Positions 2,833 to 13,270 of a DNA stretch of 64,000 nucleotides are shown one piece after another. The translations under genes and the position numbers were made by a program. Numbering within the stretch: the first letter of the stretch is position 1; every line of letters starts with the position of its first letter. A model generated the notes under the pieces. The model saw only the letters and a list, made by a program, of their open reading frames with translations. It was not told the origin of the DNA and did no database searches. Source of the stretch: a virus (taxonomy: Duplodnaviria > Caudoviricetes). The DNA lies in IMG/VR virus record IMGVR_UViG_3300005611_000002, positions 1-64,000 of that record. One strand, 5' to 3'.

Positions 2833-2907
2833 GGGCCTGTAGTGCTAATGGGAAAACACTGGTTTTGCAATCCGGAGTTGAGGGTTCGATTCCCTCCAGG
2901 TCCACCA
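2833..2907 (+). tRNA. tRNA-Ala(TGC)
   Basis: G3:U70 pair, ttTGCaa, CCA. Confidence 0.9.
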
Positions 2908-2912
2908 AAAAC

Positions 2913-2947
2913 GCGGATGTAGCTCAATCGGCAGAGCGTCTGCTTGC
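2913..2947 (+). pseudogene. 5' half of tRNA-Gly(GCC), truncated in the anticodon
   Basis: GCGGATG-TAGCTCAATCGGCAGAGC-GTCTGC-TTGC then abrupt AT-rich sequence. Confidence 0.75.
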
Positions 2948-2990
2948 ATGAAATATTAAAATGTATAAATACTTCTGTATGGAGGTAGAT

Positions 2991-3638
2991 ATGCATTACA
3001 TAATTTATAAAATAACTAATAAAATTAACGGTAAAATTTATATCGGTAAACATCAAACAAAAGATTTGAATGATGGCTACATGGGCTCTGGTAAAAGATT
3101 AGGTCTTGCTATTGAAAAATATGGAATTGAGAATTTTGAAAAGAAAATTCTATTTCAATTTGATAATGAAGCTGACATGAATGCTAAAGAAGCTGAGTTA
3201 ATAACAGAAGAATTTGTAAAAGAAGATACTAATTATAATCTATGCCCCGGCGGTAAAGGCGGCTGGGGTTATATAAATTCCGAGGGTTTGAATCTTAGAA
3301 TAGGAATGATTCATTCAGAAGAATCGAGAAAAAAGATGGGGCACAAAGGTAATACATTTAGAAAAGGGACAAAATCTTCCGATGAAACTAAGAAAAAACT
3401 TAGTGAGATTATGCCAGAGAAGTTAAAAGGTAAACCCAAGTCTGAAGAACATAGAAAAAAGATATCTCAATCTTTAAAATCTAATAAACATCTTAAAGGT
3501 AAGAAGTTTCCAAATAGGAAAAAAAGAGATCCTATAAATTTTGAAATTGTGAATTGTCCTCATTGTAATAAATCTGGAAAGAAAAACGCAATGAAAAGGT
3601 GGCATTTCGATAATTGTAGAAATGCGGGTATGATGTAG
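2991..3638 (+). CDS. GIY-YIG (Seg-like) homing endonuclease with NUMOD3 repeats and C-terminal Zn ribbon
   Basis: IYKITNKINGKIYIG, YMGSG, YNL; HSEESRKKM repeats; CPHC...WHFDNC; late promoter and GGAGG. Confidence 0.9.
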   Translation: MHYIIYKITNKINGKIYIGKHQTKDLNDGYMGSGKRLGLAIEKYGIENFEKKILFQFDNEADMNAKEAELITEEFVKEDTNYNLCPGGKGGWGYINSEGLNLRIGMIHSEESRKKMGHKGNTFRKGTKSSDETKKKLSEIMPEKLKGKPKSEEHRKKISQSLKSNKHLKGKKFPNRKKRDPINFEIVNCPHCNKSGKKNAMKRWHFDNCRNAGMM

Positions 3639-3697
3639 TGTTAGCCTGCTTCCTTGCCAAGGAAGACGCGCGAGTTAGATTCTCGCTACCCGCTCCA
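3624..3697 (+). tRNA. tRNA-Gly(GCC), divergent, overlapping the endonuclease stop codon
   Basis: GCGGGTA/TACCCGC, CTTCC-ttGCCaa-GGAAG, TCCA end. Confidence 0.85.
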
Positions 3698-4161: not shown

Positions 4162-4235
4162 GGCCCATTGGTGTAATGGTAGCACGGCAGTCTGTCTAAC
4201 TGTTGGCAGGGGATCGATACCCCTATGGGTCGCCA
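4162..4235 (+). tRNA. tRNA-Asp(GTC)
   Basis: ctGTCta loop, GCCA end. Confidence 0.9.
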
Positions 4236-4241
4236 TTTTAG

Positions 4242-4270
4242 TTGACATTTGTTCCGAATCAGTATAATAT
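4242..4270 (+). promoter_or_regulatory. Early promoter with GAATC spacer
   Basis: TTGACA-tttgttccGAATCagta-TAATAT. Confidence 0.8.
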
Positions 4271-4276
4271 GCTGAT

Positions 4277-4735
4277 ATGATTGATAATAAAATACTTCAG
4301 CTTGCTCAGAACACAAGATCATGGGCGCTTGCTATAGCAAAAGATATAAAGCCCGATGATCCAAGAGGGTGGAATTCATCTCTTACAAACATGTGCGTCA
4401 TGTGTTCTACTCATCTAGCATATCACATGCATCATGCTGGATATACCGATGTTCAAATAATAGATGCTGGTATGCATACCTTCGTGATGCTCAATGATGT
4501 CGTAATAGACGTGACTGCGACTCAGTTTGGTGAATTTGATGATGTTCTAGTAATACGGTATAACGGCATCAAGGATAAAACTCTTATGTGGTCAGAAATT
4601 GAGGATCAACCTAAGATCAAAATAAAACCTTGGTGTGATAAGGAGTTTGGGCTTGAGGTGATGTGTGGTATAGATTCTATAATTTCAATGATGAAAATAC
4701 ATATTGATAAAGATTTATTCAAGTTTGATTTCTAG
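4277..4735 (+). CDS. Hypothetical protein (C...H...D-T.-QF motifs, papain/transglutaminase-like), probably leaderless
   Basis: ATG lies ~7 nt after the -10 box; no RBS. Confidence 0.65.
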   Translation: MIDNKILQLAQNTRSWALAIAKDIKPDDPRGWNSSLTNMCVMCSTHLAYHMHHAGYTDVQIIDAGMHTFVMLNDVVIDVTATQFGEFDDVLVIRYNGIKDKTLMWSEIEDQPKIKIKPWCDKEFGLEVMCGIDSIISMMKIHIDKDLFKFDF

Positions 4736-4752
4736 TAGCATTGTAAAATAAT

Positions 4753-4828
4753 GCGAGATTAGCTCAGCTGGTAGAGCAGGTCGTTTACACCGATCAGGTC
4801 GGCGGTTCGAACCCGTCATCTCGTACCA
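4753..4828 (+). tRNA. tRNA-Val(TAC)
   Basis: Canonical cloverleaf, CCA. Confidence 0.95.
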
Positions 4829-4924: not shown

Positions 4925-4958
4925 TGCCCCTTCGTCTAGCGGCAGGACGTCTGATTTG
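4925..4958 (+). pseudogene. 5' half of a tRNA-Gln-type gene, truncated in the anticodon loop
   Basis: TGCCCCT-TCGTCTAGCGGCAGGAC-GTCTGA-TTT then TATAAATA. Confidence 0.7.
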
Positions 4959-4984
4959 TATAAATAAGTGTAAGGAGAATTAAA

Positions 4985-5617
4985 ATGATCTATACACTTT
5001 ATAAAACTACAAATATAATAAATGGAAAATTCTACATCGGAATACATAAGACTTCCGATCCAAATGATGCCTACTTGGGAAGTGGTAAAATATTGAAATT
5101 AGCTATTCTTAAATACGGTCAACACAATTTCAAAAAAGAAATACTTGCTACATTTGATACATTAGAAGATGCACGAAAAGCTGAAAACGCAATTGTAAAT
5201 GAAGAATTTGTTCATTCTGAACAAAACTATAATATAGGAATTGGTGGAGGATTGGGTGGAAGTGACTTGAATGGGTTTACATTTTCCGGCCATACTCATA
5301 CTGAAAAAGCTAGACAAAAAATAGGCGAAGCAAATAAATTTAAAGTCCTTACTGATAAAGGGCGGCAAGCAATAATTAGAAATAACACAGAAAATGAAGA
5401 TCGAAAACGTAAGATATCAGAAACATTAACTGGTGTACAAAAAAGTGATGAATACAAAAAAAATCATTCTATGGTTATGAAAGAATATTATTCTAAAAAT
5501 CCAAATAAGACTGGTATCGGTATACCAAAACAAAGAATCAAATGCCCGTATTGTGGTAAGAAAGGCTCGCCTAACAATATGAGACGATGGCATTTTGATA
5601 ATTGTAAATTGAAATGA
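4985..5617 (+). CDS. GIY-YIG (Seg-like) homing endonuclease
   Basis: LYKTTNIINGKFYIG, YLGSG, C-terminal CPYC...WHFDNC. Confidence 0.9.
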   Translation: MIYTLYKTTNIINGKFYIGIHKTSDPNDAYLGSGKILKLAILKYGQHNFKKEILATFDTLEDARKAENAIVNEEFVHSEQNYNIGIGGGLGGSDLNGFTFSGHTHTEKARQKIGEANKFKVLTDKGRQAIIRNNTENEDRKRKISETLTGVQKSDEYKKNHSMVMKEYYSKNPNKTGIGIPKQRIKCPYCGKKGSPNNMRRWHFDNCKLK

Positions 5618-5621
5618 ATAA

Positions 5622-5702
5622 TGGGAAGTAAGGGAATTGGTATACCTGCCTGCCTGACTTTGATTCAGGAGTTTGCGCGTTCGAACCGCGCCTTCCCAGC
5701 CA
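5622..5702 (+). tRNA. tRNA-Gln(TTG), enlarged D region
   Basis: TGGGAAG/CTTCCCA, CCTGA-ctTTGat-TCAGG, GCCA. Confidence 0.85.
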
Positions 5703-12764: not shown

Positions 12765-12793
12765 TTGACATTTGGCCATTGATGGATTATATA
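12765..12793 (+). promoter_or_regulatory. Sigma70 promoter of tmRNA within an inverted repeat
   Basis: TTGACA-17-TATATA; flanking CATCAATGGCTAAAT / ATTTGGCCATTGATG. Confidence 0.65.
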
Positions 12794-12799
12794 TAAACC

Positions 12800-13182
12800 G
12801 TAACGTTGAAACAACGTGGACACATACTGGACTGCGGGGCGGTACCGCACTCGTCCACCAAAAGGATACATAATGAAACAATATTCAAAAGAATATTTAG
12901 ATTTTGAATTGAAACACACTAGAGAGTTGTTAGAACTTCATCACAAAACAAAAGATGAAGAGCTAAGACTTCAAATTTTAGAGGTTAGGAAAACTCTTGA
13001 GCGTATCTTTTTGATGGGCGAGAAATAGGATCGACAGGTGTGAAAGTGAAGTGGAGTTACCGTGTTGACCTACGTTATTCGGTCACCCAAACTAACTGCA
13101 AACACAAACGCAGCTCCTAAGGCTCTTGCTCTCGCAGCATGAGTACTGTGGGTTCGGTAGAACCTAGAAACAGAATCTACCC
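12800..13182 (+). ncRNA. ssrA: Circularly permuted (two-piece) tmRNA; tag (A)NTNAAPKALALAA
   Basis: Acceptor piece ends CTCGTCC-ACCA (12860); coding piece starts GGGCGAG-AAATAGGATCGAC (13016); G3:U70; T-loop GGCGGTA; tag frame 13098-13142. Confidence 0.92.
12873..13028 (+). CDS. 51-aa ORF inside the tmRNA intervening segment
   Basis: AAGGA RBS, ATG 12873, helical charged sequence, TAG inside the tmRNA 5' end. Confidence 0.6.
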   Translation: MKQYSKEYLDFELKHTRELLELHHKTKDEELRLQILEVRKTLERIFLMGEK

Positions 13183-13270
13183 GTCATGACCCTCGCGTTA
13201 TTGGGTTTCGGGTATGAGCTCCACCCTCAACGGGCTCACTTATTTTTCTCAACAACAAAGGAACATTCGA

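Follow-up and report, generated by a model that had tools for sequence, protein, structure and literature searches.

In an uncultured T4-like marine phage, a canonical tRNA-Gly(GCC) gene has probably been broken by the homing of a Seg-like endonuclease gene that brought a complete tRNA-Gly(GCC) with it, an explanation to which we assign a probability of about 0.78. Three kinds of observation underlie this explanation: the anatomy of the locus, relatives in which the site is empty and intact, and repeated occurrence of the same layout elsewhere. The phage is represented by a viral record of 194,645 bp with terminal repeats, of which the first 64 kb were analysed here and are referred to as the window. 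By ARAGORN and Rfam, the tRNA array of the window comprises 19 tRNA genes and a permuted tmRNA, and 8 more tRNAs are found at the other end of the record. The features of the locus, and of a second locus in the same array, are listed in Table 1.

Table 1. Positions, in the window, of the features discussed in the text
Feature	Position	Strand	Basis or remark
tRNA-Ala(TGC)	2833–2907	+	left neighbour of broken tRNA-Gly
Canonical tRNA-Gly(GCC) remnant, tRNA positions 1–35, broken within the anticodon (Gly half)	2913–2947	+	truncated Rfam match; alignment; end of L093 homology
Cassette leader	2948–2990	+	late promoter, ribosome-binding site, hairpin
HEG1, putative free-standing Seg-like GIY-YIG/NUMOD3 homing endonuclease, 215 aa	2991–3638	+	PHROG 314, Pfam, alignments
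Complete tRNA-Gly(GCC) of 'odd' D-arm type, overlapping the end of HEG1 (linked tRNA-Gly)	3624–3697	+	ARAGORN and Rfam, 55 bits
tRNA-Gln 5′ remnant, broken at about position 34 (Gln half)	4925–4958	+	similarity to intact tRNA-Gln; Rfam weak alone
Late promoter TATAAATA (4959–4966) and GIY-YIG endonuclease HEG2 (4985–5617, 210 aa)	4959–5617	+	
Complete odd tRNA-Gln(TTG) with (CCTG)x3 in the D region, 81 nt	5622–5702	+	

A preliminary description of this DNA had recognised a tRNA-Gly 5′ half that breaks at TTGC inside the GCC anticodon, and both a truncated Rfam match and alignment to intact genes bear this out. In the standard register, the half reads as an acceptor strand, GCGGATG, a textbook D arm, TAGCTCAATCGGCAGAGC, G26, and the anticodon stem strand TCTGC followed by TT and GC, and it ends after anticodon base 35, at position 2947, with a length of 35 nt. 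When the stretch is cut at the break, the Rfam tRNA model matches 2913–2950 as a 3′-truncated tRNA (model positions 1–38, 18 bits, E 0.044). The half aligns with the intact tRNA-Gly(GCC) genes of the phage contigs L011, L004, L093 and L091, the last of which has 31 of the 35 bases in common with it. A 23-mer of the half matches other canonical tRNAs, including the intact tRNA-Gly(GCC) in L091, and these matches inform identity, not synteny. Exact matches were absent for the 35-mer among the viral contigs searched, and for a 28-mer of the half and a 21-mer across the Ala–Gly junction among the metagenome contigs searched. A megablast of the region against cultured phages returned nothing useful.

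The leader that follows the half begins with CATGAAAT, a left end common to other cassettes, and carries the T4-type late promoter motif TATAAATA at 2964–2971 and a ribosome-binding site, GGAGG, at 2981–2985. The window has 22 copies of the promoter motif where 4.15 would be expected, and 20 of the 22 are on the + strand; this enrichment, together with a match of the downstream ORF to PHROG 314 'homing endonuclease' (E 2e-52), upholds the earlier assignment of a late promoter followed by a GIY-YIG gene. A hairpin predicted at 2961–2996 (dG −12.8 kcal/mol, z −4.4) would bury the ribosome-binding site and the AUG, with the promoter lying within its 5′ arm. This arrangement of leader hairpin and internal promoter is the one described for T-even endonuclease genes, in which read-through transcripts are silent and late transcripts starting inside the hairpin are translated (PMC2330249). 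Here too, the hairpin may hold off translation on read-through transcripts, and late transcripts may release it.

The HEG1 ORF is intact and, as judged by profile matches, has the N-terminal GIY-YIG domain and C-terminal NUMOD3 motif expected of a Seg-like PHROG 314 endonuclease. NUMOD3 is matched above threshold (PF07460, 24.6 bits; cut-off 20.4), while the GIY-YIG matches to PF19835 and PF01541 are weak and under the curated cut-offs. In a weak alignment to I-TevI (1MK0, E 0.45), IYKI, IYIG, E and YN of HEG1 fall on the catalytic motifs, which are conserved in the family alignment. Matches found by tblastn carry the annotation 'Seg-like'. HEG1 is a mosaic, with an N-terminal catalytic domain that shares 81% identity with that of a paralogue at genome positions 185699–186315, whereas its C-terminal CPxC...RWHFDNC domain is of a different lineage. 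That paralogue, a third close GIY-YIG endonuclease of this genome and outside the window, lies directly 3′ of an intact tRNA-Glu, with a conserved linker, CATAGAGAACATGAAATGTATAAATAGTA, and its TAG stop falls in the D stem of a tRNA-Arg(ACG) whose T-loop reads TTTGAGT. Neither this copy nor some other members of the family has a half beside it; they sit cleanly after an intact tRNA.

The last four codons of HEG1 and its TAG stop (3636–3638) lie inside the downstream tRNA-Gly, which ARAGORN and Rfam call as the complete, divergent tRNA-Gly(GCC) that the preliminary description had proposed. The closest homologues of HEG1 are all found in phage tRNA arrays, where the next tRNA starts between −13 and +10 of the stop codon. 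The overlap, given prominence earlier, is thus present but not special to this locus: the T4 segB stop codon is likewise at or in the next tRNA, tRNA-Arg (PMC2330249), and an overlap of endonuclease and tRNA is present in the cultured phages Ah1 and Vibrio 1.081.O, in neither of which a tRNA half adjoins it. As a side observation, RNase P processing at the tRNA-Gly 5′ end would strip the stop codon from the HEG1 mRNA (3624–3638), and the phage encodes its own tmRNA (12767–13233). That the two together serve to keep the nuclease scarce is pure speculation.

The linked tRNA-Gly is the only tRNA-Gly(GCC) of the genome. Its first 23 bases have 98 exact matches in uncultured phages; among 59 analysable IMG/VR copies of this odd type, none has an endonuclease upstream, and many come directly after tRNA-Ala. 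The earlier view of it as a replacement therefore stands in part: the same isoacceptor is kept, but the type is a common endonuclease-free allele at the same spot elsewhere, so that the order of events is one that we infer. Homing may have delivered the complete arrangement to the window, which would then not itself have been the first target.

The linked copy differs from others of its type at two bases, carrying U19 and A56, with a T-loop of TTAGATT. Across 30 distinct odd-type alleles, all 29 that are endonuclease-free have G19 and a TTCGATT- or TTCAATT-like T-loop, and U19 with TTAGATT is confined to the endonuclease-linked allele of the window (1 of 30). With U19:A56 in place of G19:C56, the tertiary 19:56 pair has undergone a compensated change, which turns TTC into TTA inside GGTTCRANTCC, the T-psi-C motif that is essential for recognition by T4 SegB (PMC2330249). 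This single observation fits a tRNA that is predicted to be functional and has been recoded where a SegB-like enzyme would bind, and it is suggestive of the cleavage resistance proposed in the preliminary description. In endonuclease-adjacent tRNAs overall, mismatches to the SegB T-loop motif show no significant enrichment (p = 0.16).

Three relatives, L093, L011 and L004, are without an endonuclease at the tRNA-Ala/tRNA-Gly site, and each has one intact canonical tRNA-Gly(GCC) directly after tRNA-Ala, at a gap of 4–7 nt. This is what had been predicted of endonuclease-free relatives, and in none of the three (0/3) do a half and a full gene occur together. Their tRNA-Gly(GCC) genes start with GCGGAGG or GCGGGTG. 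L093 is syntenic with the window, reading Trp, Ser(TGA), a conserved spacer, tRNA-Ala, the 7 bases TAATAAC and an intact canonical tRNA-Gly(GCC); the corresponding spacer in the window is AAAAC. By BLAST, window positions 2833–2947 correspond to L093 3876–3761, and homology ends precisely with the final base of the half, 2947. The intact site in these relatives, the lack of an intron and the GCC anticodon kept downstream agree with the idea, put forward earlier, of an intron-less cassette in a disrupted tRNA that supplies an isoacceptor. On the right, the region between tRNA-Gly and tRNA-Asp is different in every relative, which leaves that boundary of the insert undefined.

Marine metagenomes may hold more than one version of the site. 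An exact 162-nt contig of run X1 (2918–3079) spans the endonuclease-plus junction. Other contigs join 2908, 2912 or 2917 to 3620, 3624 or 3629, omitting exactly the 711 nt of half and endonuclease; these joints have flanks under about 30 nt and were given little weight on that account. The metagenome data suggest three coexisting alleles, one endonuclease-plus, one in which half and endonuclease are skipped, and one in which the half runs on towards tRNA-Asp.

The slot between tRNA-Gly and tRNA-Asp is a hot spot for gene exchange: it holds orf143 in the window, an HNH-motif ORF in L093 (3703–3155, − strand) and a third, unrelated ORF in L011. The only close homologue of orf143 is in L082 (2600–3920), where it follows a vWA/Ro-like gene and a tRNA-like 3′ element with a T arm and CCA, a context that looks like a Y-RNA-type module. 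L082 lacks synteny with the window and was rejected as a comparison genome.

The window contains a second instance of the layout, in which a Gln half is followed by the same late promoter motif, a GIY-YIG gene (HEG2, 40% identical to HEG1) and a complete tRNA-Gln(TTG). By itself the Gln half gives a weak truncated Rfam match (11.2 bits, E 2.9); across about 31 nt it matches the intact tRNA-Gln of L006 almost perfectly. In L093 the slot is occupied by one intact tRNA-Gln, with no endonuclease; homology to the window extends 2 nt into the half, breaks off there, and picks up again from the full tRNA-Gln's 3′ end. A contig of run X3 matches the window up to 4957 and, at a loose end, completes an intact tRNA-Gln(TTG) of the type to which the half belongs.

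Some further observations concern the full tRNA-Gln. At 5645, contigs of runs X2 and X4 are 4 nt shorter, so the copy in the window may contain an insertion due to slippage. A D-arm string of 15 nt, GGGAATTGGTATACC, is present at 5632–5646 of the window (Gln) and at 5021–5035 of L006 (Leu-CAA), and in the 1.7 Mb of DNA examined it is found only in these two endonuclease-linked replacement tRNAs, which differ in isotype. L006 also has the acceptor string of the window's tRNA-Gln, TGGGAAGT, just upstream. The two shared strings hint at nested or serial replacement events.

The combination of half, endonuclease and full tRNA of the same isotype recurs in other phage contigs, for Gly, Gln, Ala and Leu and with three endonuclease families. 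Same-isotype pairing is found in at least six independent cases, and all breaks fall within the anticodon arm. The simple half-tRNA HMM detected canonical halves only, so the survey of halves is incomplete. In L008, a Gly half, a GIY-YIG gene and a tRNA-Gly(GCC) follow one another. There the upstream half is of the other tRNA-Gly type than that of the window, and the junction of endonuclease 3′ end and tRNA, AATGCGGGTA, is identical in the two, although the proteins are only about 45% identical.

Elsewhere, both remnants of the broken gene are retained around the endonuclease and the full tRNA: in L002 (Gln, GIY-YIG), L011 (Ala, HNH) and L006, which is the same as L007 (Leu). In each of these the acceptor strands of the 5′ half and the 3′ remnant pair 7/7, in the Ala case including G3:U70. 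At 295–991 of L011, an HNH cassette and a full tRNA-Ala sit in a split canonical tRNA-Ala (5′ half 295–330, 3′ remnant 958–991), and the HNH ORF reads through the entire replacement tRNA. At 4175–5137 of L006, a PHROG 15427 endonuclease and a tRNA-Leu(CAA) sit in a split tRNA-Leu whose strands GCCCCTA and TAGGGGC pair. A full tRNA enclosed by two remnants, as in L002, L011 and L006, indicates that the tRNA arrived with the endonuclease.

These observations can be brought together in a model of how the locus may have arisen. The ancestral lineage would have had a canonical tRNA-Gly(GCC) directly after tRNA-Ala. HEG1 is presumed to cut this sensitive allele near the anticodon, perhaps while bound to the T arm about 20 bp from the break, as I-TevI-like enzymes do; such a distance would suit an enzyme whose cleavage site is about two helical turns from the place where it binds. 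Ordinary homing by double-strand-break repair would then have copied in the late promoter, HEG1 and the welded downstream tRNA-Gly(GCC). At the left junction, the 5′ half of the recipient or of an earlier donor would have been kept; the old 3′ half is proposed to have been lost because the right-hand exchange lay in or beyond the tRNA. The 35-nt remnant would be a scar that might also serve as the left homology arm in subsequent homing. The linked tRNA-Gly may escape cutting by HEG1 through differences such as C56A, compensated by G19U. It keeps glycine GCC decoding, and invasion would for that reason need neither an intron nor an intein.

The main rival to replacement takes the odd-type tRNA-Gly to be the resident and the mobile unit to be the canonical half, promoter and endonuclease, inserted exactly before it; nothing would have been replaced, and the half would be a homology arm that hitch-hiked from an earlier host. 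An odd-type gene could indeed have been resident, given how widespread the order tRNA-Ala, odd-type tRNA-Gly is without an endonuclease, and the metagenome joints described above skip precisely this unit, although their short flanks (<30 nt) count against them. The halves of the two Gln cases in the window and L002 also share GGACGTCTGA, while their full tRNAs differ. Yet tRNA-Ala, spacer and half are contiguous in the window as they are in the canonical arrangement of L093 and L011, down to a spacer that ends in AAC, and the endonuclease/tRNA junction is conserved with L008 despite the half of another type there. The full tRNAs that lie between two remnants in L002, L011 and L006 weigh against a resident tRNA as well. 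We disfavour this rival and regard it as unlikely.

A second alternative replaces site-specific homing with promiscuous SegB-like cutting and microhomology repair, with duplication of segments or rearrangement of the array as the outcome. In T6, SegB is the driver of microhomology-mediated rearrangements, at whose junctions genes are truncated (PMC13096335), and orphan T-arm pieces are plentiful in these arrays. The half and the full tRNA are nevertheless far too different to be recent duplicates, and the repeated same-isotype pairing, with all breaks confined to the anticodon arm, also counts against this explanation, which we regard as highly improbable. Least probable by far, with next to no chance of being right, is an interrupted gene whose halves are joined as RNA, through a group I intron or as a split tRNA. 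The break does fall in the anticodon loop, where tRNA introns sit, but the sequence after the endonuclease is a complete tRNA by itself, and the stem strand TCTGC of the half is unable to pair with the downstream GGAAG. The preliminary description had seen no matching 3′ half and no intron core; a search of the whole 194,645-bp genome for a 3′ half or exon and of Rfam for an intron (E up to 1) found neither, and a group I intron or split tRNA was rejected.

Several parts of the favoured replacement explanation have precedents. SegB of T4 and T6 is a free-standing GIY-YIG homing endonuclease in a tRNA gene cluster, and endonucleases that reside in phage tRNA clusters have a statistical association with tRNAs (PMC2330249, PMC13096335). 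The window element resembles SegB as a GIY-YIG and NUMOD3 enzyme in a phage tRNA array whose ORF ends at or in the next tRNA. SegB cuts tRNA genes and drives the inheritance of itself and of flanking tRNA genes. It differs in that its gene sits between intact tRNAs and its cuts fall at the 3′ end of tRNA genes, whereas the scar in the window is at tRNA position 35, in the anticodon; and a broken target with a same-anticodon substitute is not described for SegB, whereas the linked tRNA of the window has the identity of the broken one.

Another precedent is provided by endonuclease ORFs of fungal mitochondria that come with a replacement gene end, as in atp6 of Allomyces macrogynus and atp6, atp9, cox2 and nad3 of Glomus, where the displaced native part stays as an unexpressed remnant (PMC3630166). 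In both settings an endonuclease gene without intron or intein lies inside a gene, a foreign copy is brought and part of the native gene is left behind. Judged on sequence, the window element has the components of this type: a native remnant, an endonuclease, a foreign copy predicted to be functional, and an intact site in relatives. The fungal elements, however, replace the 3′ end of protein genes and carry the replacement upstream of the endonuclease, whereas in the window a whole RNA gene lies downstream of it and the remnant is a 5′ half, with both halves in relatives.

The T-even seg and mob genes (SegE, SegF, SegG, MobE) home without introns, and a resistant neighbouring allele is co-converted through double-strand-break repair. 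As in the window, where resistance is putative, an endonuclease lies beside a resistant version of its target and both spread. Their target is cleanly converted, whereas in the window part of the old gene persists beside a new one of a different sequence type. Integrative elements also insert into tRNA genes, restoring the 3′ end from their attachment site, so that an invader compensates for the tRNA gene that it interrupts. They do so by site-specific recombination with an integrase and duplicate the same sequence, whereas the element in the window would be nuclease-driven and brings a divergent whole gene. Endonucleases in tRNA arrays, stop codons in the next tRNA and fungal replacement elements are therefore known already. 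In a full-text literature search, no account was found of an endonuclease that breaks a tRNA gene and brings a same-anticodon substitute, and it is this tRNA replacement layout that appears to be new.

The layout shows a route by which a homing endonuclease could enter a short, conserved RNA gene without an intron, namely by bringing a working substitute. It ties together the SegB-like link of enzyme and tRNA cluster, the abundance of tRNA fragments in such clusters and the unusual sequences that phage tRNAs have. To map the specificity of a new enzyme, broken and intact alleles are already at hand as substrates. We tentatively put forward, at slightly less than even odds, that phage tRNA arrays host a general, splice-free 'cut-and-rescue' drive, in which endonucleases of GIY-YIG, HNH and other families, welded to a recoded tRNA of the same anticodon, overwrite sensitive alleles. 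Under such a drive, G19U/C56A of the linked tRNA-Gly would mark the recognition element of HEG1 and be the immunity mutation. The cassettes would keep shuffling and diversifying the tRNA sequences of phages, and this would account for the odd D and T arms that many phage tRNAs have. Engineered gene drives of the cleave-and-rescue kind have a similar design.

Other parts of the array show comparable irregularities. The tRNA-Ala to the left of the Gly half has an unusual D arm and, at 74% identity, resembles the replacement tRNA-Ala that is linked to the HNH gene in L011; metagenome relatives diverge from the window at 2835 and continue as a canonical tRNA-Ala. This odd tRNA-Ala may be the trace left by an endonuclease cassette since lost. 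Within 1654–2228 of the window, T-arm-like pieces at 1765–1785 and 1847–1866 lie outside any called tRNA. They are conserved in L003, are duplicated near the other tRNA island of the genome (183649–184343, 185206–185375 and 187059), and may be tRNA-like RNAs or old scars. Lastly, metagenome contigs connect 4237 to 4758 through 8 other letters, which means that orf152 (4277–4735) is missing from some relatives.
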